From assembly GCA_046759765.1 (NCBI GenBank), contig JBHICV010000003.1, forward strand, positions 1-44,962: DNA of 44,962 bases, read 5' to 3'. Shown one piece after another: positions 1-11,153 of this stretch. The stretch's first letter is position 1. Every line of letters begins with the position of its first letter. A program made the translations under genes and the position numbers. Source of the stretch: Acidimicrobiia bacterium (lineage in GTDB: Bacteria > Actinomycetota > Acidimicrobiia > Spongiisociales > CAZKJJ01). The notes beneath the pieces were generated by a model that saw only the letters and a program-made list of their open reading frames with translations, was not told the DNA's origin and ran no database searches.

Positions 1-627
1 GACCGTTTCACCCGGCACTACCTCGGCGACGATCTCCTGTTTTCCGCCGTCAACCTGACGCGCAACACGCAGCCTTCCAGAGAGAAGCAGGTAGGCATCG
101 TCGCCGATGTCGCCCTCGTTGAAGAGGACCTCGCCGGAGGGCAGGTGCACCGTCGTGATCCCGGAGGAGATGAAGGCCAATCCCTCCGGGTCGGCATGAC
201 CGAATAGGAGCGCCAGCGCACGTCGGAGCTGTCTAGATCTGAGTCGTTCCCGCGCATTCTCGGCAATCCGAACCGCGACCTCTGGATGCCTTTCGATCAG
301 CTCCCCGAACCCTTCCGCGTCCAGACCGACGAGCGCCGACTCGGTGGCTGCGACGATGGTTGCGGTTCTCGCACCCCCGGCGGTCAAAGCCAGCTCGCCG
401 ACGACCTCACCTGCTTCGATCCTCGCCAGCAGCTGCGGACCCGCTTCTTGCTCGAGCACCACAGAGAGCGCGCCGCCCGCCACGAAGAAGATCTCGTCGG
501 CTTCCTCACCCTCGCGGGCCAGAACCTGGTCGGCGTCAAGACGGACGAGCCGCAGATGCGAGGAGAGGTTGGCAAGGTCGCTCTTTTTTGTCCCCCTGAG
601 CAGGTCGATCTGGGCGAGTAGCTCCAC
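1..627 (-). CDS. Tandem cyclic-nucleotide-binding domain protein, N-terminal part (probably cNMP-patatin/NTE family); runs off the left edge
   Basis: Not in the ORF track. Manual translation from GTG 627: VELLAQIDLL...REGEEADEIFFV...GEVVGELALTAGGARTATIVA, then a second repeat LFNEGDIGDDAYLLLSGRLRV...PGETV. In-frame ATC at 642 follows GGAGGAGG. The patatin domain is inferred, not seen. Confidence 0.8.
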   Translation of the reverse strand, partial: MELLAQIDLLRGTKKSDLANLSSHLRLVRLDADQVLAREGEEADEIFFVAGGALSVVLEQEAGPQLLARIEAGEVVGELALTAGGARTATIVAATESALVGLDAEGFGELIERHPEVAVRIAENARERLRSRQLRRALALLFGHADPEGLAFISSGITTVHLPSGEVLFNEGDIGDDAYLLLSGRLRVARQVDGGKQEIVAEVVPGETV

Positions 628-689
628 AGGGTCTTGATTGATGGCGCCTCCTCCGACCCGAAACGCTACACCTAGCTCTGCCCACAGAT

Positions 690-716
690 TCAGGATTAAT
701 CAGCTCCTGCCGATGA
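690..716 (+). promoter_or_regulatory. Possible sigma28 (FliA/WhiG-type) promoter
   Basis: TCAG-N15-GCCGATGA versus consensus TAAA-N15-GCCGATAA, upstream of the GGGAGG RBS and ATG 735. Confidence 0.4.
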
Positions 717-734
717 AATATCGGGAGGTAGCAG

Positions 735-2744
735 ATGTCTACGGACGCCACGGCAGCGCCCGAACGCTGGAACAGTCGCCCCGTTCTGGCCGCCCTCCTC
801 CAGGCGGCCGCGCTCGCCGTTCCCATCATCGCCGCCGTGACGACGAGCGTCGTTCTCAGCATGGCGCTGCCCCAGCCGCGCTCGCTCCTACCTGCGGTGG
901 TCTGGTGGGTAGTGGTCTTCGGAGGAGCGACCTTGGTTTTGTGGGGGGTTGACCGACTGGCCCGGAGGCTCATACCCCTGGCCACCCTCCTTCGACTCAC
1001 GCTGTTCTTCCCCGACCGGGCCCCGTCACGCTTCCGAGTGGCCCTTCGGTCCGGAAGCAGCGTCGGCAATCTGACGGCGCTCAGAGCCCGGCCGGGTGAG
1101 GGCTCCCAGGCGGCTGCCCAGATCCTCACTTTGGCGGGGGCCCTCAACAGGCACGACCGGAGGACTCGCGGTCACGCGGAGCGTGTGCGCGCCTACGTCG
1201 ATCTGATCGCCAAGGAGATGCACGTCTCGGAAGAGGGCCGGGATCGGCTGCGATGGGCGGCCCTGCTCCACGACATTGGCAAGCTCGAGATCCCGCGTGA
1301 GATTCTTAACAAGAGCGAGCCGCTCCGCGACGACGAGTGGGAGCTGCTCCAGCAGCACCCCAACCTTGGTATGCGTATTGCCGCCCCCCTCATTCCCTGG
1401 CTCGGATCCTGGGCCGATACCATCGCTCACCATCACGAGCGCTTCGACGGCGCCGGCTATCCCCGCGGGCTGTCCGGCGAAGACATCAACCGGGGCGCCC
1501 GAATAGTGGCGGTAGCGGATGCTTTCGACGTCATGACCAGCGCCCGCTCATACCAAAAGCCGGTCAGTGCGGTGGCGGCTCGAGCCGCGCTGGAAAAGGA
1601 CGCCGGTCGTCAGTTCGATCCCGCGGTCGTGCGGGCTCTCTTCAATGTCTCACTCGGGCGCCTGCGGTGGATCGTCGGACCTATCTCATGGTTGGCGCAG
1701 GTACCGATCCTGTCCGACCTCCACGGAATTGCCAGCTGGACGGGATCTGCGCTTCAGACCGCCGCGGGCGCGGCTGCAGTGATACTGGCGGTGGGCGGCG
1801 GTCTGGTCGGGTTCCCGCTGGTCACCGAGGCTTCGGAGCCACTCCCGGTCGCGGTAGCACCGACTGATGGCGGCCCGCCGGATTCTGCTCCCGTCGCCCA
1901 GGGCCCCTCGGGCCCAGCAGGGAGTGGCACGCCCCTGAGTCCCACGACAACTGAAGGCGAAGAAACTGTTCCGTCTTCAACCTCAACGGCACCTGGAACC
2001 ACGGCTACAACCGAGCCGCCTGCCACGACCATCTCAACCTCCACGACGGCTTCGGTGACAACCATTCCGCCCCCAGTGACCAGCACCTTGGCGGCTACCA
2101 CCACGACCAGCACGACGGTGCCGGCGACGACCACGAGCAGCACGACGCTGCCGGGGACTACCACCACTACCACCACGCCGGCTGTGCTCGTTCTCTACTT
2201 CCATAACGATCCAAGCCCTCCTAGCACCGATACGCCCTCCCATGTCGTACTGCCAATGAGCTCGAGCACACCCACCGCCTCCCAGCTCTACAACTACGAC
2301 GACGATCGTGACGAGGAACCTGGCCTGCTAATCCAAAAGACGGGAGAGGGGTTGGGGGAGTTCGATCCCACGAAGTATCAGCTCTGGTCGATGAGCACGG
2401 GCTCCGGCATGAACCTCGAAGGGCAGGTAACGCTCCGCCTGTGGAGCACCAGCAAGGACTTCGAATCGGATAAAGCCGGGGAGGTAGTCGCCCGGCTGAT
2501 GGACTGCGACAGCTCCGGGTCGGGATGCACGTGGCTCGCGCAGGGATCACTCGCCCTGGGTTCCTGGAACGGTGGGTCCTCGAACTGGGTGTCCAGAACC
2601 ATCGATCTCGGAACGATCAGCACAAGCGTGGGCGGCGGCCGCACGCTGCGGCTCAAGGTAGTCGTGGGCGACAGCTCCGACGACGATATGTGGTTTGCCT
2701 ACGACACAAGTTCCTTAAAGAGCTGGCTGAAGATCAGCTCCTAG
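735..2744 (+). CDS. Membrane-anchored HD-GYP (c-di-GMP phosphodiesterase-type) protein with Thr/Ser/Pro linker and C-terminal extracellular domain
   Basis: TRGHAERV, LLHDIGK, HHERFDGAGYPRGL and VADAFDVMT motifs; N-terminal TM helices, a further TM and a T/S/P-rich stalk. Confidence 0.9.
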   Translation: MSTDATAAPERWNSRPVLAALLQAAALAVPIIAAVTTSVVLSMALPQPRSLLPAVVWWVVVFGGATLVLWGVDRLARRLIPLATLLRLTLFFPDRAPSRFRVALRSGSSVGNLTALRARPGEGSQAAAQILTLAGALNRHDRRTRGHAERVRAYVDLIAKEMHVSEEGRDRLRWAALLHDIGKLEIPREILNKSEPLRDDEWELLQQHPNLGMRIAAPLIPWLGSWADTIAHHHERFDGAGYPRGLSGEDINRGARIVAVADAFDVMTSARSYQKPVSAVAARAALEKDAGRQFDPAVVRALFNVSLGRLRWIVGPISWLAQVPILSDLHGIASWTGSALQTAAGAAAVILAVGGGLVGFPLVTEASEPLPVAVAPTDGGPPDSAPVAQGPSGPAGSGTPLSPTTTEGEETVPSSTSTAPGTTATTEPPATTISTSTTASVTTIPPPVTSTLAATTTTSTTVPATTTSSTTLPGTTTTTTTPAVLVLYFHNDPSPPSTDTPSHVVLPMSSSTPTASQLYNYDDDRDEEPGLLIQKTGEGLGEFDPTKYQLWSMSTGSGMNLEGQVTLRLWSTSKDFESDKAGEVVARLMDCDSSGSGCTWLAQGSLALGSWNGGSSNWVSRTIDLGTISTSVGGGRTLRLKVVVGDSSDDDMWFAYDTSSLKSWLKISS

Positions 2745-2768
2745 AGAGCGGGCGGGAGCCGCTGGACG

Positions 2769-3281
2769 TCACTCCTGCGAGTGTCTCTTTTGTCGAGGCC
2801 CTGCGCGTTCGGTCGGCGTCGCATGGGGCGGCGCCTCGGCCGGAGGCTCGAAAGTGCCGAGGTCTATCGCCTCATCGGCCGCAGACAGCTCGGCGAAAGT
2901 CGTGCTGCGCAGCTCGTCGATCATCGCTCCCTGAGCTCGGGTCCAGGCAACATGGATGGGGCAGACGTCCGTCCAGCCGCAGGGCCCGCCCCTGAGCACG
3001 CATCGCTCCAACAGGATGGGCCCCTCGGCGGCCTCGACCACTTCCAGCAAACTCAGCTCCGCGGGGGGCTTGGCGAGTGCATAGCCTCCGTCCGGCCCCG
3101 CCAGGGCTGTCAGGATCTTCGCTCTAACCAGATCTGCCAGGATCTGGGTGACGTACGGCTGGGGGATGTCCATGTCTGTGGCGATCTCGCGCGCTTTGCG
3201 CCGATCACCGTCCGCGACACGGGCCAGATCCAGCACTGCCCGGACCGAGTAGTCGCCCTTGCGGCCCAGCGCCACTTGCAT
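2769..3281 (-). CDS. Rrf2-family (IscR/NsrR-like) Fe-S transcriptional regulator
   Basis: wHTH with GPDGGYALAKPP, ISLLEVVEA-like segment (LSLLEVVEAAEG) and C-x6-C-x5-C-x2-H cluster ligands. Confidence 0.92.
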   Translation of the reverse strand: MQVALGRKGDYSVRAVLDLARVADGDRRKAREIATDMDIPQPYVTQILADLVRAKILTALAGPDGGYALAKPPAELSLLEVVEAAEGPILLERCVLRGGPCGWTDVCPIHVAWTRAQGAMIDELRSTTFAELSAADEAIDLGTFEPPAEAPPHATPTERAGPRQKRHSQE

Positions 3282-3295
3282 TATGTATTCCCGGC

Positions 3296-3378
3296 CTAAA
3301 CGTTTAGTACGTTACTTGACGTTGAGCGCGAATGCGACTATAACCTACTCAACGCTTAGTTAGCAGCTAAACGTTTAG
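3296..3378. promoter_or_regulatory. Operator array: two perfect (3296-3307, 3367-3378) and two degenerate (3315-3326, 3348-3359) CTAAACGTTTAG palindromes
   Basis: Read directly from the sequence; arranged as two pairs, each with a 19-bp offset, mirror-symmetric around the promoter. Confidence 0.8.
3316..3344 (+). promoter_or_regulatory. Housekeeping sigma70-type promoter of the oxidoreductase operon
   Basis: TTGACG (3316-3321)-N17-TATAAC (3339-3344); AGGAG RBS at 3377-3381. Confidence 0.75.
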
Positions 3379-3389
3379 GAGCCGGCCCG

Positions 3390-4352
3390 ATGGCAGTGCT
3401 GCACAGGACAGAGGTTCGACAGGCCGAGGCTTCGTACCTAGGTGCTGGTGCTGCGTCCGTTGGCTGGACCCTCTCCGGCCTGGGGCGAAGCCTCCTGACC
3501 GCAGCCGCTCTGACTGTGGGTGCTGAGCTCCTCCTGCATCGTCTGGCGCCACCTGTCCTATCCCAGGTCGTTCCCGGATCTTCGCTGAATGTGACCGTGG
3601 CATCGGCCGGCGAGCTGGCTGCCAGCTCGGGGGCCGTGCTCGTGTTTGCAGCCGCAGTTGCTCTGGCACTCAAAACGCGGCGTTTGGGGCCGCCGTTGTT
3701 GGGCGCCGCCGGGACGGTGCTGCTCGCATCGATCTGGACCGCCCCCGTGACGGGGGTACTCGTTCATACCGCCGTAGCCGCGGCGGCAGCCGCCGTCGGA
3801 ATTGCAGCGGTCCGCCGTCGCCAGGACCTGTACTCGACGGCCGTAGTCATGGCCGCCTTGGCCGTGGTCGTGAGCCATTTGTCGCTGTTAGTCGACGCTG
3901 CCTGGCCGAGCCGCGCAGTCTCGAGCGCTGTCGCCGCCCGTGGTATCGCGGAGCTGCTGATTGTTTCCGCGGCACTTATTCTGGCGGCGTCGCTTCTGGC
4001 GGAGGGGTCGCCCGGCCTATGGGTGTGGACCGTGGCGGCCGGATCGGCGATAGTCGTGGCGGGGGCCCTTACCTTTCAGCCCGGCTTCGCCGCGATCGGT
4101 GCGATCTGGGCGCTAGGAGCGACGCTCTCACTGCCGCCCTTGTTGTACATCGCCGCAGCCGGCGCTATCGGCCTTCTGGTTGCCGGCTGGTCGGCTTCGC
4201 CCGCGACCCGCCCATTGGCCGCGGCCGTGGTGCTCTTCGGAACGGCCGGGATTCAGTCCCAGGTATTGCATCACGACCTCACGGCGATCGTGGCCCTCAG
4301 CGTGCTGGCCGGGACCATCGGGGGCAAGACCATCAGCGGTGAGGAGACCTAG
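3390..4352 (+). CDS. Polytopic membrane protein of unknown function (about 10 TM), first gene of the operon
   Basis: Ala/Leu/Val-rich helices throughout; RBS present; stop 2 nt before the nxrA start. Confidence 0.8.
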   Translation: MAVLHRTEVRQAEASYLGAGAASVGWTLSGLGRSLLTAAALTVGAELLLHRLAPPVLSQVVPGSSLNVTVASAGELAASSGAVLVFAAAVALALKTRRLGPPLLGAAGTVLLASIWTAPVTGVLVHTAVAAAAAAVGIAAVRRRQDLYSTAVVMAALAVVVSHLSLLVDAAWPSRAVSSAVAARGIAELLIVSAALILAASLLAEGSPGLWVWTVAAGSAIVVAGALTFQPGFAAIGAIWALGATLSLPPLLYIAAAGAIGLLVAGWSASPATRPLAAAVVLFGTAGIQSQVLHHDLTAIVALSVLAGTIGGKTISGEET

Positions 4353-4354
4353 CC

Positions 4355-7300
4355 ATGCAGGTATCCCGGCGCCAGTTCCTCCAGATGGGAGCGGTAGCCA
4401 CGGTCGGCGCGGTCTCATATCCGCTCCTCCGCCAGCTCGAGACGGTGGATAGTGTCGGGAATCCGCTCGAGGTCTACCCGTATCGCGACTGGGAGCAGGT
4501 CTATCACAAGCAGTACGCATACGACTCCAGCTTCACCTTCATCTGCTCGCCGAACGACACCCACGCCTGTCGCCTGCGGGCGTTCACACGGAACGGAGTA
4601 ATCCAACGAATCGAGCCGAACTATGACGTAGGCCGCTACACCGACCAACTCGGCAACACCGCCTCCGTGAAATGGCACCCCCGAGGCTGCAAGAAAGGAC
4701 AGACCTTTCACCGTCGGGTCTACGGACCATATCGACTGCGATTCCCGATGCTTCGCAACGGCTGGAAGCAGTGGGCCGACGACGGATTCCCGGAGCTCAC
4801 CCCGGATGCACGGGATCGGTACATGTTCACGAGCCGGGGCACCGACTCTTTCACTCGACTCACCTGGGACGAGACCTACGACTACATGGCGCGCGGTCTG
4901 ATCAACGTCGCCGAGACCTACTCGGGTCCCGAGGGTGTCAGAAGACTGGAAACCGAGGGCTACCAGCCGGAGATGATCGACGAAATGGGCGGCGCCGGTA
5001 CCCGCACGATGAAGCTGCGCGGCGGCATGGGTCTGCTCGGCGTCATCGGCAAGTACGGCATGTATCGGATGAGCAACACGCTGGCACTACTCGACGCCCA
5101 TGTTCGCGGCGTACGACCGGACGAGGCCAAAGCCGGTCGAAACTGGTCGAACTACACGTGGCACGGGGACCAGGCACCCGGCCATCCGTTCGTGCATGGC
5201 CTCCAGACATCGGAGCCCGACTTCAACGATCTGGCCAATTCGAAGCTGACTATCCAGGTCGGGAAGAACCTGGTGGAGAACAAGATGCCCGAGTCACACT
5301 GGTTCTCCAACATCATGGAGCAGGGAGGCAAGATCGTCACGATCTCCCCGGAATACAGCCCTCCCGCTTCCAAGTCGGACTACTGGCTTCCGGTGCGGCC
5401 CGGTCTCTCAGACACCGCCATCTTCCTCGGAATAACCAAGCTCCTCATGGACCGAGAGCTCTACGACCGTGACTTCGTCCTCCAGTACACCGACTTCCCG
5501 CTCCTGATCAGAACCGACACCCTCGAGCGCATACGAGCCAAAGACATCTTTGCGGGCTATCGGCCCGGTCTGGTTTCGGACGGGCCCAGCTTCCGGGAGC
5601 AGAAACTCACCGAAGAGCAGTACGAAAAGGTCGGCTTCGACTTCGTGGTGTTCGACGAGGGGACGCAGTCACTGCGTGCCATCACCAGGGACGACCTGGG
5701 ACCTCGAATGGTGGACAGAGGAATTCGACCCCAGCTCTCTTACCGGGACACGGTCCAGCTCGTCGACGGCTCCGAAGTCGACGTGCTCACCATCTGGGAG
5801 GCGTATCGCGACCATCTCTCGGACTACGACCTTCAGACGGTCCACGAGATTACGGGAACGCCGGTGGAGCTCATCGAACGGCTGGCAGGAGACATCGCCA
5901 CCATCAAACCGGTTGCGATCCACACCGGCGAGGGCATCAACCACTGGTTCCACGCCACCCTCCATAACCGAGCCACCTACCTCCCGATCATGCTGACCGG
6001 CAACATCGGCCTGCCGGGAGCCGGCAGCCACACGTGGGCCGGCAACTACAAAGCGGCCCTGTGGCAATCGGCCGAGTGGTCGGGTCCCGGCTTCAAGGGA
6101 TGGATCGCGGAGGACCCCTTCGCCCCCAACCTGGATCCCTCAGCTGATGGCAAAGATGTCGCGGTTCACAACTACGCCAAGGACGAGGAGCCTGCCTACT
6201 GGGACCACGGTGACCGAGCGCTGATCGTCGACACGCCGGCGTTCGGCCGGAGGAACTTCACCGGCCAAACCCACATGCCTACCCCCACCAAGGTGATCTG
6301 GACCTCCAACGTCAACCTGATCAACAACGCCAAGCACGCATACCTGGTCATCAGGGACGTCAATCCGATGGTCGACATGATCATGACCCAGGACATCGAG
6401 ATGACGGCGTCGTGCGAGCTGTCCGACTTCGTGCTTCCCGCTAACTCGTGGGTCGAATTCCAGACGTCCGAGGTAACGGCCTCCTGTTCCAACCCATTTC
6501 TCCAGATCTGGGGTCGGGACGGAATCCAACCCCTATTCGATTCCGAGGACGACCTAATGATCATGGCCAAGACGGCAGAGCGGATCGGCCAGATCCTCGG
6601 GGATCAGAGGTTCTCCGACTACTGGAAGTTCGCGCTCGAAGACCAAGCTGAGGTCTACCTCCAGCGGCTTCTCGATGCGTCCGCCACCACCAGGGGATAC
6701 CAAGTCTCGGACATCCAGGCGGGCAAATACGGCGAGCCGGGTGCGGCCCTGATGATGTTCCGCACCTACCCGAGGATCCCGTTCTGGGAGCAAATTCACG
6801 ACAACGTCCCGTTCTTTACCGAAACCGGACGACTCCACTCCTATGTCGACATTCCCGAAGCCATCGAATACGGCGAGAACTTCATCGTCCATCGCGAAGG
6901 CCCGGAAGCCACCCCGTACCTTCCCAACGTCATCGTGTCCTCCAACCCCCTTATCCGGCCCGAGGACTACGGCGTTTCCCGGGACGAGCTGGATCCCGAC
7001 CTGCGCACCGTCCGCAACATCAAGCTGCCCTGGTCTGAGGTGCGCAATACAACTAACCCGCTCTGGGAACAGGGCTTCAACTTCTACTTCCTCACCCCCA
7101 AGACCCGTCACACGACCCACTCCAGCTGGGCTGTCACCGACTGGGAGGTCTTATGGGGCAGCAACTTCACCGATCCCCATCGGCGAGACACGCGATATCC
7201 GCACGTCGGTGATCGCGAGGTGCACATGAACCCTCAGGCCGCCCAGGATCTCGGACTTGCCGACGGAGACTACGTCTGGATCGATGCCAATCCCGCCGAT

Positions 7301-7801
7301 CGGCCGTACCCGAACTACGACCCGAACGACACGTCCGACCCCTTCCACAAGGTCGCTCGGCTGATGCTGCGCGTGAAGTACAACCAGGCTTATCCGTACA
7401 ACGTCTTGATGGCCAAGCATGGGTACTGGCTGGCCACGCAGAAGACCGTCCTCGCCCACGAGACGCGGGCGGACGGACGAGCGGTATCCGAAGACACGGG
7501 ATATCAGTCCAGCTACCGGTACGGCTCACACCAAAGCGTCACCAGAGACTGGGCGATGCCTATGCACCAGACCGACACCCTTTTCCACAAGCAGAAGATT
7601 GCGGTCGGATTCATGTTCGGAGGCGAAGCCGATAACCACGCCATCAACACCGTCCCCAAAGAGACGCTGGTGCGGGTGACCAAGGCGGAACCCGGAGGTC
7701 TAGGCGGGGCAGGGGTCTGGGCGCCGGCAGAAAGTGGTCTGTCTCCGGGCAACGAGGACGAGAGGATGAACCGGTATCTCGCCGGGGGGTATGTGACATG
7801 A
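4355..7801 (+). CDS. nxrA: Molybdopterin oxidoreductase alpha subunit, periplasmic-type nitrite oxidoreductase/nitrate reductase (anammox/Nitrospira NxrA-like)
   Basis: Tat motif SRRQFL; Fe-S motif C-x3-D-x3-C-x39-C (CSPNDTHAC...PRGC); Mo-ligand Asp in YTWHGDQAPGHP; 1148 aa; colinear with anammox NxrA as recalled (GGMGLLGVIGKYGMYR, KNLVENKMPESHW, HREGPEATPYLPN, NTVPKETLV). Confidence 0.9.
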   Translation: MQVSRRQFLQMGAVATVGAVSYPLLRQLETVDSVGNPLEVYPYRDWEQVYHKQYAYDSSFTFICSPNDTHACRLRAFTRNGVIQRIEPNYDVGRYTDQLGNTASVKWHPRGCKKGQTFHRRVYGPYRLRFPMLRNGWKQWADDGFPELTPDARDRYMFTSRGTDSFTRLTWDETYDYMARGLINVAETYSGPEGVRRLETEGYQPEMIDEMGGAGTRTMKLRGGMGLLGVIGKYGMYRMSNTLALLDAHVRGVRPDEAKAGRNWSNYTWHGDQAPGHPFVHGLQTSEPDFNDLANSKLTIQVGKNLVENKMPESHWFSNIMEQGGKIVTISPEYSPPASKSDYWLPVRPGLSDTAIFLGITKLLMDRELYDRDFVLQYTDFPLLIRTDTLERIRAKDIFAGYRPGLVSDGPSFREQKLTEEQYEKVGFDFVVFDEGTQSLRAITRDDLGPRMVDRGIRPQLSYRDTVQLVDGSEVDVLTIWEAYRDHLSDYDLQTVHEITGTPVELIERLAGDIATIKPVAIHTGEGINHWFHATLHNRATYLPIMLTGNIGLPGAGSHTWAGNYKAALWQSAEWSGPGFKGWIAEDPFAPNLDPSADGKDVAVHNYAKDEEPAYWDHGDRALIVDTPAFGRRNFTGQTHMPTPTKVIWTSNVNLINNAKHAYLVIRDVNPMVDMIMTQDIEMTASCELSDFVLPANSWVEFQTSEVTASCSNPFLQIWGRDGIQPLFDSEDDLMIMAKTAERIGQILGDQRFSDYWKFALEDQAEVYLQRLLDASATTRGYQVSDIQAGKYGEPGAALMMFRTYPRIPFWEQIHDNVPFFTETGRLHSYVDIPEAIEYGENFIVHREGPEATPYLPNVIVSSNPLIRPEDYGVSRDELDPDLRTVRNIKLPWSEVRNTTNPLWEQGFNFYFLTPKTRHTTHSSWAVTDWEVLWGSNFTDPHRRDTRYPHVGDREVHMNPQAAQDLGLADGDYVWIDANPADRPYPNYDPNDTSDPFHKVARLMLRVKYNQAYPYNVLMAKHGYWLATQKTVLAHETRADGRAVSEDTGYQSSYRYGSHQSVTRDWAMPMHQTDTLFHKQKIAVGFMFGGEADNHAINTVPKETLVRVTKAEPGGLGGAGVWAPAESGLSPGNEDERMNRYLAGGYVT

Positions 7802-8109
7802 CCGATCGCAAGCGCCCATTGCGCATTCCCCTGACAGTGACTCCGCCCACGGGGACGGCGAAGGCTGCCGAGGCCTCCGATCCTTATCAGCCGGTCGCGT
7901 TTGGAGTGCCCACGCCCGGCCACGATGGACTCGAGGCCATGGCTCGGACGTTTATCGCCGAGTTCGCCCTCCTCGGCTGGCCTCGTAGCCGGATTGCCCG
8001 GATGTTCCGGATCCCCCGCTACGTGGCGGCACACACGGTGTACCGGCAACGGGGCCCGGTCTTCGTCGAAGAGCTCCTCGATGATGTCCTCGGGCCGGAA
8101 GGAAACTGA
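7798..8109 (+). CDS. Small hypothetical protein between the alpha and beta subunits
   Basis: ATGA overlap with the nxrA stop; ends 1 nt before the nxrB ATG; DPxxxV...MARTFIAEFALLGW core. Confidence 0.75.
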   Translation: MTDRKRPLRIPLTVTPPTGTAKAAEASDPYQPVAFGVPTPGHDGLEAMARTFIAEFALLGWPRSRIARMFRIPRYVAAHTVYRQRGPVFVEELLDDVLGPEGN

Positions 8110-8110
8110 C

Positions 8111-9352
8111 ATGCCATCCGTCTACAACTGGCAGCTCGGCAGGGAAATGGCCTACCGGTTCGAGGGTGGGCAGCCGGAGTGGCAGTTCGCTGCCATCTTC
8201 AACATCAACCGATGTCTGGCCTGTCAGACCTGCACACTGGCCTGCAAGTCCACCTGGACCTTCTCCCAGGGCCAGGAGGACATGTGGTGGAACAACGTCG
8301 AGACCAAGCCTTATGGCGGCTATCCCCATTACTGGGACGTCAAGACCCTCGAACTGGTCGAGCGGGCCAATCCCGGAGGTCAGTCGTGGGACGGGACCGA
8401 AACGGCCGCCTCCCCCTACGGGACCTTCGAGGGAGCCACGATCTACGAAGCGGCCCAGCTCGCCGGTCAAGGCGAGCAGGCCGTCGGATACCTGCCCACC
8501 GAAGAGGAGTGGACTTCTCCCAACATCCACGAGGACTCACCGGTGGCGGGAGCCCCACTCGCCGAGGGCGCGGTGTTGCCGGAGCACCAAACCTGGTTTT
8601 TCTACCTACAGCGAATCTGCAACCACTGCTCGTACCCGGCGTGCCTCTCAGCCTGTCCCCGCAACGCTATCTACAAGCGTCCCGAAGACGGGATCGTTCT
8701 GATCGACCAGGAGCGCTGCCGGGGCTACCGGAAGTGCGTCGAGCAGTGCCCATACAAGAAGCCGATGTATCGACCCGACACCCGAACCTCGGAGAAGTGC
8801 ATCGCCTGCTACCCGCGCGTGGAAGGAAGCGATCCGCTCTCGGGGGGACAGCCGATGGAGACTCGCTGCATGAGTGTCTGTCCGGGTCAGATTCGACTCC
8901 AAGGGCTGGTCCAGACCGAAGCCGACGGGAGCTGGACGCCCGATGAGACCAACCCGCTGTACTACCTGGTCCACACCGAAAAGATGGCGGTCCCGCTCTA
9001 TCCCCAGTTCGGCACCCAGCCCAACGTCTACTACATACCCCCGCGCTGGGTGCCCAGGCCCTACCTACAACAGATGTTCGGTCCGGGTGTAGACCGCGCC
9101 ATCGAGGCGTACCGGCGTCCGTCCCGCACCGCGCAGGCGGTCCTTCAGCTCTTCCGGGCCTCGCAGTCGATCGTCTTCTCATTCGAGGTGATAGAAGGCC
9201 TCAAGGTTTTCGAGATCAACATCGACGGCCAGCCGCTCGAAGTGTTCAACGACACGATCGTCGGATACGGACGGGACGGCTCGGAGATCGTCCGCACCAC
9301 GGTGGTGGAGGAGCAGTACGAGCGCCCGAACCAGTTCCTCAATTCGATCTGA
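8111..9352 (+). CDS. nxrB: Fe-S beta subunit (NxrB/NarH family)
   Basis: True start MPSVYNWQLGR at 8111; four cluster motifs CLACQTCTLAC, CNHCSYPACLSACP, CRGYRKCVEQCP, CIAC...CMSVCP; WWNNVETKPYGG. Confidence 0.92.
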   Translation: MPSVYNWQLGREMAYRFEGGQPEWQFAAIFNINRCLACQTCTLACKSTWTFSQGQEDMWWNNVETKPYGGYPHYWDVKTLELVERANPGGQSWDGTETAASPYGTFEGATIYEAAQLAGQGEQAVGYLPTEEEWTSPNIHEDSPVAGAPLAEGAVLPEHQTWFFYLQRICNHCSYPACLSACPRNAIYKRPEDGIVLIDQERCRGYRKCVEQCPYKKPMYRPDTRTSEKCIACYPRVEGSDPLSGGQPMETRCMSVCPGQIRLQGLVQTEADGSWTPDETNPLYYLVHTEKMAVPLYPQFGTQPNVYYIPPRWVPRPYLQQMFGPGVDRAIEAYRRPSRTAQAVLQLFRASQSIVFSFEVIEGLKVFEINIDGQPLEVFNDTIVGYGRDGSEIVRTTVVEEQYERPNQFLNSI

Positions 9353-9361
9353 GGAGGCGAG

Positions 9362-10123
9362 ATGGCAACGACCGCAGAGGAGAGAGCCCTCGCAAGAGCG
9401 ACCTTCTACCGCGCACTCGCCCTGGCTTTCTCCTATCCCACCCCGGAGGTGACTGCGGAGATCCGGGAGGCTTTCACGACGGCCGCCGTCGCCGCAGAGC
9501 TGATAGACGAGTCGACTCGCGCCAGTGTCACAAGGGCCCGGGCAGCCCTCGAGCCGCTCCGACCAGCCGACCTCGAGAAGGCATACCAGCAGACATTCAC
9601 CCTGAGCTATTCGGAGGACTGCCCGCTGTACGAGACGGCGTTCTCCGCCCGCCACCTCTTTCAGCAGGCACAGCAACAGGCCGACCTGGCTGGGACCTAT
9701 CAGGCATTCGGCGTCAGAGGCCGAATCGAGCGACCGGACCACCTCGCGGTCGAGCTGGAGTTCTCCTACCTCTTGGCTCTTAAGGAAGCTCGGGCCCGCC
9801 ACGAGCAGGAGGGCGATCACATCCAGATCTGCCGGGACGCCTCTCGGGCCTTTCTCCGCCAGCACCTGGCACGGTGGGCTCCGCTGGTCGGCCGGCGGGT
9901 TGCAGTCACGGGCGCCGGCACCTGGTACGAGGTCGCGGCCCGTGCCCTGGAGACGTTCGTCGCCTGGGAGCAGCGCTTTCTCCGCGTTGGGGCGATCGAG
10001 ATGTTTCGAGACGAACCGATCATCATTGCCGAGGAGCCGGGCGAGATGACGTGCCCGGTGGCAGAGGAGGCCTTCGCGGAGCTCCTCGATTCGCCGTGGA
10101 AGGAACACGACCGTGTCTCCTAG
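9362..10123 (+). CDS. TorD/DmsD-family maturation chaperone
   Basis: CPLYET, ERPDHLAVELEF and FLRQHLARW motifs; GAGGAGG RBS. Confidence 0.9.
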   Translation: MATTAEERALARATFYRALALAFSYPTPEVTAEIREAFTTAAVAAELIDESTRASVTRARAALEPLRPADLEKAYQQTFTLSYSEDCPLYETAFSARHLFQQAQQQADLAGTYQAFGVRGRIERPDHLAVELEFSYLLALKEARARHEQEGDHIQICRDASRAFLRQHLARWAPLVGRRVAVTGAGTWYEVAARALETFVAWEQRFLRVGAIEMFRDEPIIIAEEPGEMTCPVAEEAFAELLDSPWKEHDRVS

Positions 10124-11153
10124 CTCGCTCCGCAAATCCAATTGGATCCGGTCGGTCGCGGCGGTACTAGTCGGGCTGGCCCTCGGCCTGTTACAGGTCA
10201 TTCCGGTGCGGTCGCAGACCCTCCATCTCGAGGCGCTCCGGACTACGGAGCCGGTCCCCATTGATCGACCCTGGGCGGATATCTGGGACAGAGCGGCGAG
10301 TCAGGAAGTTCCGCTCTCCGCGCAAAACGTCGCCCCGCCTTTCGGAGGAGGTGGCGTGTCGTCGGTGGTGGCCCGCGCTCTCTACGACGATGATCGCATC
10401 TACCTGTTGATGGAGTGGGCGGACAACGATGTTGACGACGCCGTCAACGGAATCGCGCTGTACTCAGACGCGGCCGCCGTTCAGTTCCCGGCTATCCCGG
10501 GAACAGCTCCTCCATACACGATGGGAGCTCCGGATGTCCCGGTGAACATCTGGCAATGGAAGGCGGTCTGGCAGGCCGATCTGGATTCCGGTTACGCCAC
10601 GACTCAGGATCGCTTCCCCGATTCCTACGTCGACTATTACCAAGGCGGCGACGACCCCCTCTACCGGCCGGCCGAGGCGGTCGGTAACCCGCTGGCGCAG
10701 CGATCACGTGGCTCTCCGATCGAGAACCTCCTGGCTGAGGGCTTCGGTTCGCTGACGACTGCGCCCACCCAGGACGTAGACGGATCGGGTGCCTGGCAGT
10801 CGGGGCGATGGCGGGCCCTTTTCGTTAGAGGGCTTGCTGCTGGAGAGGAGGGCTACGCTCGCTTCTCGGCCGGCGAGCCGACTCTGGTGGCGTTCGCGGT
10901 CTGGGATGGGGGGGCCGGCGATCGCAACGGCGAGAAGTCGATTGCTCCCTTCATTGACCTGACGCTCACCGACGCGACTATCGGCACTCCCGGGGTTCCC
11001 CCGACGGCAGGGGGCTCGCCGTGGCTGTTGGTAGGGGCGTTGCTGATCATCATGCTGGTCGCAGCGAGGCTTGCAACCTTCGGCAGGTCGGGCTCCGCTC
11101 GCGTGGAGGAGGCGAACGAAGTCCCAACCGGAGCTGACGGGTCAGCCAGATGA
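10113..11153 (+). CDS. nxrC: Heme-b gamma subunit (ethylbenzene dehydrogenase gamma/NxrC-like) with C-terminal TM anchor
   Basis: N-terminal signal peptide; YSDAAAVQFP, TMG (Met ligand), VNIWQWKA, EGFGSLT, AFAVWDG..GDRNGEKS (Lys ligand); hydrophobic WLLVGALLIIMLVAA near the C-terminus. Confidence 0.85.
   Translation: MSPSSLRKSNWIRSVAAVLVGLALGLLQVIPVRSQTLHLEALRTTEPVPIDRPWADIWDRAASQEVPLSAQNVAPPFGGGGVSSVVARALYDDDRIYLLMEWADNDVDDAVNGIALYSDAAAVQFPAIPGTAPPYTMGAPDVPVNIWQWKAVWQADLDSGYATTQDRFPDSYVDYYQGGDDPLYRPAEAVGNPLAQRSRGSPIENLLAEGFGSLTTAPTQDVDGSGAWQSGRWRALFVRGLAAGEEGYARFSAGEPTLVAFAVWDGGAGDRNGEKSIAPFIDLTLTDATIGTPGVPPTAGGSPWLLVGALLIIMLVAARLATFGRSGSARVEEANEVPTGADGSAR

Follow-up and report, generated by a model that had tools for sequence, protein, structure and literature searches.

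Does an operon resembling those for anammox nitrite oxidoreductases (NXRs), found in what appears to be a heterotrophic actinobacterium, encode an enzyme that oxidizes nitrite, reduces nitrate, or acts on something else? Metagenome surveys routinely score such genes as 'nxr' or 'nar', and nitrate reduction or nitrite oxidation is then deduced from the totals. The window analysed here is a stretch of 44,962 nucleotides, and its source genome was recovered from a hydrothermal-vent metagenome. A first-pass annotation had placed a complete, anammox/Nitrospira-type NXR-like operon at positions 3390-11153. Inspection of open reading frames (ORFs), Pfam matches and motifs located every feature of that description at these positions: a Tat-signal alpha subunit with an Asp-type FS0 motif, a four-cluster beta subunit, a TorD chaperone and an EbdC-like gamma subunit, all tightly coupled (Table 1).

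Operon organization and subunit features

The genes are arranged in the order membrane protein, alpha, 103-aa ORF, beta, chaperone and gamma, with successive junctions formed by a 2-nt gap, a 4-nt overlap, a 1-nt gap, a 9-nt gap and an 11-nt overlap. A purine-rich, Shine-Dalgarno-like stretch lies 5' of every operon start. The operon is complete in that genes for A, B, C and the chaperone are all present. A gene for a partner linking it to quinol or cytochrome is missing from the vicinity, and neither NXR-T nor cytochrome genes occur in the operon itself. RNA and tRNA scans of the whole window returned no match.

Table 1. Features of the operon region, with positions in the window, strand and supporting evidence
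Feature	Position	Strand	Evidence
Rrf2-family regulator, 170 aa	2769..3281	-	PF02082 110.7 bits; divergent from operon
Polytopic membrane protein, 320 aa	3390..4352	+	hydropathy, about 8-10 hydrophobic helices
Alpha, catalytic Mo-bisMGD subunit, 1148 aa	4355..7801	+	7B04_B, Pfam, motifs
Conserved small ORF, 103 aa	7798..8109	+	tblastn across related loci
Beta, Fe-S subunit, 413 aa	8111..9352	+	7B04_A, PF13247
TorD/NarJ-type assembly chaperone, 253 aa	9362..10123	+	PF02613, TIGR03482
Gamma, EbdC-like haem b subunit, 346 aa	10113..11153	+	PF09459 EB_dh, 7B04_C

The subunits were said to track anammox NxrA/B closely, and the scores agree. All three align collinearly and over their full length with the NxrABC enzyme of Kuenenia stuttgartiensis (KsNXR; PDB 7B04; PMC8387239): alpha with chain B at 1694.4 bits (residues 1-1145), beta with chain A at 589.9 bits (residues 2-413) and gamma with chain C at 113.4 bits. 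The next-best solved enzymes, among them PcrAB-like 4YDD and EbdABC 2IVF, score 171 and 151 bits for alpha, 198 and 189 bits for beta, and at best 63 bits for gamma.

Alpha carries the twin-arginine signal SRRQFLQ at residues 4-10. Pfam matches comprise TAT_signal and Molybdopterin (PF10518 at 18 bits, under its cut-off of 22.7), and an RR pair lies within the first 45 residues in 80 of the 83 related alpha sequences. TatC and MoaA are encoded elsewhere in the host genome. The FS0 motif reads C64-x3-D68-x3-C72-x39-C112, and residues 267-286 are YTWHGDQAPGHPFVHGLQTS. C64, D68, N67 and D272 align with Cys67, Asp71, Asn70 and Asp275 of KsNXR-A, for which PMC8387239 describes roles in FS0 ligation, Mo ligation and nitrite/nitrate binding. 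By this alignment, D272 is the predicted Mo-ligand Asp and N67 the predicted substrate Asn, and both are invariant in a 13-sequence alignment. The FS0 position is Asp in 75 of the 83 related alpha sequences and Cys in 8; the Tepidiforma group has Cys, not Asp. Judged by its sequence features, the window alpha is a Tat-exported enzyme of the Asp-type FS0 lineage, sharing with the Kuenenia enzyme the Tat signal, an FS0 site of three Cys and one Asp, the Mo-ligand Asp and the substrate Asn.

The remaining subunits extend this likeness to a four-cluster beta and an EbdC-like haem b gamma. Beta has 15 Cys in four groups, consistent with three [4Fe-4S] clusters and one [3Fe-4S] cluster; it has no signal peptide and would cross the membrane together with alpha. 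Gamma matches PF09459 (EB_dh) at 107.7 bits, and its M137 and K275 are candidate axial haem ligands, aligned with the Met and Lys named as haem ligands of KsNXR gamma in PMC8387239. By hydropathy, residues 14-32 form a signal-like N-terminal helix and residues 305-323 a hydrophobic one near the C terminus that is a candidate membrane anchor, whereas a Brocadiaceae gamma (L080) stops 14 residues past the domain, too short for a helix. The chaperone matches PF02613 at 65.2 bits.

All four proteins score below the cut-offs of the NCBIfam type II DMSO-reductase models (TIGR03479 / 03478 / 03482 / 03477), with 314.8 bits against 984.75 for alpha, 256.2 against 480.7 for beta, 82.4 against 152.3 for the chaperone and 129.3 against 169.85 for gamma. 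These models are nonetheless the best-scoring, and by this measure the operon proteins are relatives of the curated subfamilies, not members. Such family-level matches, together with those to EbdABC, would fit an enzyme with a different substrate, such as selenate, chlorate/perchlorate or some organic compound; type II members with an EbdC-like gamma are known that use these, and PcrAB-like 4YDD and EbdABC 2IVF are indeed the next solved relatives. However, the scores of these relatives are 9-10 times lower than that of the NXR with alpha and about threefold lower with beta, and the window alpha keeps the invariant N67 and D272. We consider activity on another substrate very unlikely.

Canonical NarGHI belongs to the same superfamily, follows a similar A/B/chaperone logic and is found in other genomes of the host order (L093, L094). 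In contrast to the window alpha, with its Asp-type FS0 and Tat signal, the NarG proteins of these relatives carry H-x3-C-x3-C, lack a twin-arginine motif in the first 80 residues, and share about 25% identity with it over about 360 residues. The window alpha and beta reach 122 bits (cut-off 1084) with NCBIfam narG and 170 bits (cut-off 524) with narH, and an EbdC-like haem b protein (PF09459) stands in place of NarI. On these comparisons, the window enzyme is not a canonical NarGHI.

Two operon genes had been passed over in the first-pass annotation. The 310 nt separating alpha and beta contain the 103-aa ORF, which overlaps the alpha stop through an ATGA, ends 1 nt 5' of beta, and encodes neither a signal peptide nor a hydrophobic helix. 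It has a tblastn match in 62 of 83 related loci, directly 3' of alpha in 61, and a homologue was not found in three Brocadiaceae-type loci. No Pfam or NCBIfam family matches it, and its Atlas matches are all 'hypothetical protein' clusters. The second gene encodes the membrane protein at 3390-4352, whose stop precedes the alpha start by 2 nt. It has no Pfam or NCBIfam match, and all of its Atlas leads fall below threshold. Positional homologues (307-339 aa, 8-12 helices) occur only at the nearest loci (L001, L002, L003, L017 and L004) and have in common a C-terminal TRhLAA...HHnLTA motif. Both the 103-aa ORF product and this clade-specific membrane protein are candidates for a role in assembly of, or electron transfer with, an enzyme of global importance.

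The divergent Rrf2 regulator scores 97.4 bits with TIGR00738, exceeding the cut-off, and falls below the equivalog cut-offs for IscR, NsrR and RirA. Its C94-x6-C101-x5-C107-x2-H motif is typical for Fe-S-binding Rrf2 sensors. Of 80 related loci, 13 have a homologue upstream of alpha, as does the same-family genome G006. L001, L002, L003 and L017 have the same order as the window, namely Rrf2, membrane protein, A, small ORF, B, chaperone and C.

Organotrophic housekeeping genes flank the operon, as they do the relatives' loci, and the flanking genes are different at each related locus. Those of the nearest loci include a TetR regulator, methylmalonyl-CoA mutase, thiolase, beta-eliminating lyases and alcohol dehydrogenase, with no cytochrome or nir/nor genes among 10 ORFs of L001, L002 and L017 (L003 excluded). 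G006 has only Rrf2 and alpha in common with the left side of the window. Neither these ORFs nor G006 point to conserved respiratory neighbours.

Host identity and contig integrity

The operon had been attributed to a heterotrophic actinobacterium, and the host genome bin (G000) bears this out. Its host rpoB (contigs C98/C48) is 78-86% identical to those of genomes titled Acidimicrobiia or Acidimicrobiaceae, the remaining window genes find their best matches in the Acidimicrobiia genome G004, and the contig encodes Septum_form and Transglycosylas (PF06737) domains, which are typical of actinobacteria. A 16S gene was not found in the host genome. The host is Acidimicrobiia-like, apparently actinobacterial and heterotroph-like, and presumably monoderm; unlike the anammox setting of NXR, it would have no anammoxosome.

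A chimeric or mis-binned contig, with an operon from Chloroflexota or another organism, would also produce this picture. The bin contains a second, foreign rpoB (the two are 47-66% identical mutually) and two moaA genes. Moreover, the nearest alphas, at L001, L002, L003 and L017 (83-85% identity), include that of L003, whose genome is titled Chloroflexota and has an rpoB of 1252 aa that is Chloroflexota-like. Parts of alpha and beta are also covered by no long single Logan contig, and many short contigs of related organisms are found instead; this fragmentation is due to the abundance of related genes in the samples.

Against such an artefact, the operon is embedded in a 45-kb contig whose ends lie 3.4 kb and 34 kb away and whose other genes resemble those of G004. 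Among the 30 contigs in the bin that measure at least 20 kb, only two have a lower tetranucleotide distance; composition is uniform, and so is GC3 (0.74-0.82 in the operon vs 0.67-0.81 in the flanks), in keeping with the native codon style noted earlier. Contig depth stays even, at 8-12, over both flanks and the less conserved operon genes. The operon-flank junctions are spanned piecewise by Logan contigs that come from sequencing runs on two further samples: a single X1 contig covers 8792-15119 with zero differences, and X1, X2 and X3 contigs tile 1-5045. The 83-85% variant is also present in G001, G002 and G004, which have Acidimicrobiia-type rpoB genes, and in the same-family G006, and 12 of 103 high-quality Acidimicrobiia genomes, some of 1-9 contigs, carry NXR-like genes. 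Taken together, these observations make misassignment of the operon very improbable. The second, foreign rpoB does mean that the NirK and oxidase genes on other contigs of the bin may belong elsewhere.

Phylogeny and distribution of the enzyme type

Alpha trees were computed with IQ-TREE on 46 of 96 rows and with FastTree on all 96, Nitrospira being absent from the rows. Alpha falls inside a 39-row clade with Brocadia and Nitrospinota NxrA (SH-aLRT 100 in IQ-TREE, with which FastTree agrees), a clade from which NarG and the remaining type II enzymes are excluded. The anammox/Nitrospira-type designation thus stands for the clade, but not for the branch: alpha lies outside a 5-row anammox/Nitrospinota sub-branch, in another sub-branch made up mostly of Chloroflexota, where it nests with L004 and Dehalococcoidia rows with starred support. 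No organism in this sub-branch is named as a nitrite oxidizer among the 96 rows. Identity is about 62% to Brocadia NxrA, which sits in the other sub-branch, and 63-64% to the alphas of Nitrospinota loci L037 and L054 of the same enzyme clade. Periplasmic NXR of Nitrospina and Nitrospira faces outward like the window enzyme, the Nitrospira comparison being drawn from the literature (PMC10732223, PMC11009272, PMC11604079). Operons in Chloroflexota MAGs (Dehalococcoidia, Tepidiforma-type) are NXR-like and related to that of the window, and horizontal transfer with Chloroflexota probably explains the module, whether it was acquired or shared in this way. As a separate observation, most cultured organisms that carry a name in the clade are anammox bacteria or nitrite oxidizers, which counts against a nitrate-reduction reading.

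The rarity implied by the first-pass annotation was not borne out. Close relatives occur in at least 598 species genomes from many phyla, and in a class sample of 121 Acidimicrobiia genomes an NXR-like alpha is present in 14 and canonical narG in 8. The enzyme type is widespread in non-nitrifiers, and the window is a further case of an already known type. Both genes occur together in one genome of the sample (G033), where about 0.9 would be expected by chance; therefore, there is no complementarity signal, and a complementary distribution as a hint of equal function was ruled out in this sample. Among 21 relatives, NXR-like genes occur in five (G000, G006, G016, G018 and G024) and narG in four, the two sets being disjoint. 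These tallies include the unpublished G009 and G020, which have haem-copper oxidase and cytochrome c matches and no NXR-like, narG or RuBisCO match; no conclusion rests on them.

In the literature searched, no paper deals specifically with Acidimicrobiia enzymes of the NXR type; supplementary trees of the cited papers may include actinobacterial sequences. PMC13335318 mentions 'nxrAB' in passing for Actinomycetota UBA5794 MAGs, a call that may reflect the one KEGG orthologue common to NarG and NxrA (PMC12361377).

Direction of catalysis and significance

The caveat that direction cannot be read from sequence holds. We hypothesize that a Tat-exported NxrABC-type enzyme interconverts nitrite and nitrate at the outer face of the cytoplasmic membrane, and that its host, a heterotroph, would most likely use it to respire nitrate, or else reversibly; to this sequence-based reading we give an even chance. 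Nitrate reduction or reversible use is favoured because of several features. A search for RuBisCO found none in G000 (92% complete) or in four relatives that bear NXR, and no canonical narG was found in G000. The genome encodes a NirK-like enzyme fused to a cupredoxin (contig C83; 291 bits, just under the cut-off of 296). Added to these are the conserved Rrf2 regulator, the organotrophic flanks, and the presence in the clade of known nitrate reducers according to PMC10732223. RuBisCO is the marker of CO2 fixation searched here, and its absence leaves autotrophy possible; one published reference, by its title, describes a strain of Acidimicrobiia that fixes carbon through roTCA. NirK is reported in nitrite oxidizers too (PMC11009272). 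Co-occurrence of NirK and NXR among the 21 relatives was uninformative, with NirK-like matches of at least 240 bits in G000, G008, G013, G018, G019 and G025 and only G000 and G018 common to both sets.

In the mechanism we propose, the chaperone would load the cofactor in the cytoplasm, and alpha-beta would be exported via Tat and then dock on the membrane-tethering gamma. Electrons would pass along Mo - FS0 - FS1-4 - haem b and be exchanged with high-potential carriers, for which small c-type cytochromes or cupredoxins of the genome are candidates; the membrane protein at 3390-4352 is the sole possible partner encoded in the operon. The weakest step is direction, presumed to be nitrate reduction or reversible use by a facultative organoheterotroph, with the nitrite product passing to the extracytoplasmic NirK-cupredoxin enzyme and the adjoining Fe-S Rrf2 regulator perhaps controlling the operon. 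Canonical chemolithoautotrophic nitrite oxidation is not proposed. Two further observations count against the nitrate-reduction reading. The closest characterized enzyme, Kuenenia NXR, is described as catalysing both directions (PMC8387239), and G000 encodes two A-type-like haem-copper oxidases, one divergent one and seven class-I cytochrome c domain matches, which would suit aerobic nitrite oxidation.

Indeed, the enzyme might be a nitrite oxidoreductase in vivo, providing supplementary or main energy under aerobic conditions through haem b, a cytochrome c or cupredoxin, and a haem-copper oxidase. NXRs are its closest solved and named relatives, and the oxidases and c-type cytochromes are in the genome. 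An outward active site is described as energetically favourable in pNXR nitrite oxidizers (PMC12998223), Met/Lys haem b ligation is said to confer a high potential (PMC8387239), and in other MAG studies relatives from non-nitrifier phyla were proposed to oxidize nitrite (PMC10732223, PMC11604079). However, Nitrospina and Nitrospira nitrite oxidizers are autotrophs, whereas the window host has no RuBisCO match. Its genome is also small and heterotroph-like with a single copy of the nxr operon, and its alpha sub-branch, with no named nitrite oxidizer, stands apart from that of anammox bacteria and Nitrospinota. We regard nitrite oxidation as possible, but less probable than nitrate reduction or reversible use. 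A bolder proposal, that Acidimicrobiia at vents gain energy from surface nitrite oxidation with the membrane protein and the 103-aa protein as NXR partners, is speculative and seems to us unlikely; if true, it would describe the first nitrite-oxidizing actinobacterium and a new wiring of NXR into the respiratory chain.

With either direction, the window shows on a well-supported contig that Acidimicrobiia carry NXR-type operons, which are commoner than narG in the class sample. Should these enzymes oxidize nitrite, heterotroph-like actinobacteria would be a source of nitrate at vents and in other settings; should they instead reduce nitrate, nitrification is overestimated by many 'nxrA' counts.

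Organization of the operon and identity of its products

The six open reading frames (ORFs) at 3390–11153 are carried on one strand, with no more than 11 nt of gap or overlap between neighbours, and each of their starts is preceded on the 5' side by a purine-rich stretch resembling a Shine-Dalgarno sequence. When compared with all solved structures, the alpha, beta and gamma subunits match best to chains B, A and C, respectively, of the NXR of Kuenenia stuttgartiensis (KsNXR, PDB 7B04), with scores of 1694, 590 and 113 bits. The runners-up for alpha among solved structures are 4YDD, a type II DMSO-reductase-family enzyme (171 bits), 2IVF, ethylbenzene dehydrogenase (151 bits), and E. coli NarGH (106–112 bits). 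In NCBIfam, the operon proteins score under the cut-offs set for narG, for narH and for the models of the type II subfamily, and therefore are relatives, not members, of these curated sets.

Features of the operon and of neighbouring genes in the window
Feature	Position	Strand	Basis or remark
HD-GYP-type protein, 669 aa	735–2744	+	PF13487
Rrf2 regulator, cluster-binding	2769–3281	-	divergent from operon
Polytopic membrane protein, 320 aa	3390–4352	+	hydropathy; no family by Pfam/NCBIfam
Alpha subunit, 1148 aa	4355–7801	+	7B04 chain B match
Small ORF, 103 aa	7798–8109	+	between nxrA and nxrB
Beta subunit, 413 aa	8111–9352	+	7B04 chain A match
NarJ/TorD-type chaperone	9362–10123	+	
Gamma subunit	10113–11153	+	EB_dh (PF09459); 7B04 chain C match
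Cupredoxin, 244 aa	22653–23387	+	C-terminal PF13473 domain

The motifs that the first-pass annotation had read in alpha proved exact (C64-x3-D68-x3-C72-x39-C112, and YTWHGDQAPGHPFVHGLQTS at 267–286), and its four-cluster beta subunit is borne out by 15 cysteines in four groups. Excerpts of the KsNXR report (PMC8387239) assign Asp275 as the Mo ligand, Asn70 to the positioning of substrate, Asp71 as the Asp in the 3Cys/1Asp ligation of the alpha-subunit Fe-S cluster FS0, and Met155 and Lys305 as the haem b ligands. In our alignments these five residues correspond to D272, N67, D68, M137 and K275 of the window proteins. The FS0 position is Cys rather than Asp (C-x3-C-x3-C) in 8 of 83 related alpha subunits (L006, L009, L012, L013, L014, L019, L054 and L061), which include the Tepidiforma group and one Nitrospinaceae locus. 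Alpha begins with a twin-arginine signal (SRRQFLQ), and gamma has an N-terminal signal-like helix and a C-terminal hydrophobic helix (305–323). The alignment to the Kuenenia protein starts at residue 2 of the 413-aa beta, which makes a longer frame with a TTG start at 7901 unlikely.

The least expected detail is the 103-aa ORF together with the clade-specific membrane protein. The small ORF is kept in 62 of 83 related loci from many phyla and has no match in the other 21, including the Brocadiaceae-type loci L068, L074 and L080 and the Nitrospinota locus L054. It belongs to no known family in Pfam or NCBIfam; some of its Atlas structural neighbours fall in Nitrospinota rotamase-domain clusters, with every score under the bar for naming a family. 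The membrane protein is translationally coupled to alpha and is found only in the nearest relatives and in L004, the next closest locus. Its homologues (L001 8961–9980, L002 9066–9989, L017 9028–9978) are weakly conserved overall and have in common a C-terminal motif with a His-His pair. It has fewer conserved His residues than a dihaem cytochrome b would need. The HD-GYP-type gene lies upstream of the Rrf2 regulator and is not kept beside the operon in relatives; the top domain-level NCBIfam match of its product, to a NosR-family c-di-GMP phosphodiesterase model, is far under the cut-off.

Host and contig integrity

With its 44,962 bases, the window makes up the entire contig C3 of a metagenome-assembled genome (MAG), G000. 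This MAG comprises 2.73 Mb in 308 contigs and is 92% complete and 2.4% contaminated. It holds two rpoB genes with a mutual identity of just 47–66%, so some of its contigs derive from a second organism. One rpoB (contigs C98/C48) is 78–86% identical to those of the genomes carrying L017 (Acidimicrobiia), L001 (Acidimicrobiaceae) and L002; the other (C208/C163) is 62–66% identical to that of every one of five genomes searched. The L002 genome is titled Kiloniellales, and its rpoB is 79% identical to, and in the same 1121-aa length class as, the Acidimicrobiia-type gene of G000. Given an rpoB of this type, the title is probably a misassignment, unless the bin is mixed.

Window DNA outside the operon matches 15 places in the Acidimicrobiia genome G004, which account for nine of the ten strongest hits; in Chloroflexota genomes only four to five places match. 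The contig encodes Septum_form, Transglycosylas (PF06737), LysM-M23, luciferase-like monooxygenase, GH65, thiolase and CoA-transferase proteins. Of the 30 contigs that reach 20 kb, it has the third-smallest tetranucleotide distance from the bin mean, and operon GC3 falls inside the range of the flanks, in agreement with the native-looking codon style described earlier. Three sequencing runs, all from a single study and labelled hydrothermal vent metagenome, contain most of the stretch. Positions 1–5045 are tiled piecewise by contigs from runs X1 (2256–3245 and 3286–4449), X2 (1–2670 and 3721–5045) and X3 (2718–3697), and a single X1 contig spans 8792–15119 with zero differences. Independent support comes from X2 and X3 only, as X1 is possibly the source sample itself. 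Contig depth is 8–12 in both flanks and sums to 68–175 at the beta start (8005–8671, runs X1–X4), which shows that the same vent metagenomes contain numerous related beta genes of the NXR type, at least 95% alike over these positions. On the question of chimerism, composition, GC3, depth and bridging contigs speak for integrity. The feature is real: an intact operon, with good support, on a contig of Acidimicrobiia-like character.

Export, electron partners and direction of the reaction

The NarJ/TorD-type protein would help load the cofactor in the cytoplasm, alpha and beta would then leave the cell via Tat, and the C-terminal helix of gamma would tether the complex. This helix is retained in the nearest relatives, unlike in the gamma subunits of Brocadiaceae (L080) and Nitrospinota (L037), which end 14 and 3 residues past the domain, respectively. 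G000 encodes TatC (on C25) and MoaA. Two full-length moaA copies are present, on C282 and C5.

Neither in the window nor in the nearest loci does the operon have a gene for a quinol-oxidising or cytochrome partner next to it. Elsewhere, G000 has seven matches to the class-I cytochrome c domain and three members of the haem-copper oxidase family. One of the three, L097 (480 aa, C133:180–1622, minus strand), is divergent and distantly cbb3/NOR-like; it scores 162 bits for cbb3 CcoN against a cut-off of 583, and may be either an atypical oxidase or an enzyme of NOR type. G000 also encodes cupredoxins; the one in the window has a weak match to the nitrosocyanin model and is a possible high-potential electron carrier.

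Part of one published account (PMC10732223) describes the clade as containing nitrite oxidisers, anammox bacteria and nitrate reducers, with direction unassignable from sequence, and the KsNXR excerpts (PMC8387239) report that the Kuenenia enzyme catalyses both reactions. We prefer nitrate reduction or reversible use, which for a heterotroph we consider about an even prospect. This preference follows from the finding of neither RuBisCO nor canonical narG in G000, and from a NirK-cupredoxin fusion, the Fe-S Rrf2 regulator and organotrophic genes. The fusion, L098 (533 aa, C83:4465–6066, minus strand), is a NirK-like Cu nitrite reductase with a C-terminal amicyanin-like cupredoxin; its score is 291 bits (cut-off 296).

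Relatives and distribution in Acidimicrobiia

A word-indexed search with alpha returned 2353 proteins at E <1e-30, the nearest of which (80–85% identity) belong to MAGs bearing the names Chloroflexi or Actinomycetota. At least 598 confirmed relatives emerged from a scan in which each species was represented by a single genome; the best 80 of them comprise Chloroflexota (34), Actinomycetota (5), Planctomycetota, Omnitrophota, Nitrospinota, Elusimicrobiota, Acidobacteriota, one archaeon and others. In an exhaustively searched 50%-identity library, the entire group is a single representative with 64% identity to alpha, followed by full-length clusters with SAR202/Chloroflexota names (46%) and Gaiellaceae names (42%).

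Two alpha trees were rooted on canonical NarG from same-order relatives: a FastTree of 96 rows (the window, 80 loci, 3 relatives, 2 NarG and 10 cluster representatives) and a quick IQ-TREE (LG+G4) of 46 of these rows. In both, the window groups with L001, L002, L003 and L017 (support 100), L004 is the next to join (99), and all are placed amid Dehalococcoidia and Tepidiforma-type rows. The resemblance to anammox NXR put forward in the first-pass annotation holds in part: the enclosing clade (99–100) includes Brocadia and Nitrospinota rows, but these form a separate five-row sub-branch (99) outside of which the window falls. The grounds for provisionally taking this as the 'Nitrospira/Nitrospina/anammox' clade are the 7B04 match and literature excerpts, the trees being built without Nitrospira or Kuenenia rows. 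The enzyme clade is known and very widespread, and the window operon adds one member.

Among 20 relatives searched, G006, of the same family, carries the window's variant (83–84% identity), and three same-order genomes carry a 59–60% variant that forms its own basal branch in the trees. An NXR-like alpha (E ≤1e-150) occurs in 14 of 121 class genomes sampled and in 12 of 103 of high quality, some assembled in 1–9 contigs; identity is mostly 57–61%. Canonical narG was found in only 8 of the 121, and thus the rarity implied at first does not hold, the NXR-like alpha being the commoner of the two in this sample. With 14 such genomes, NXR-type enzymes that face outward recur within this actinobacterial class, and the window variant looks like a second lineage, common to Chloroflexota too.
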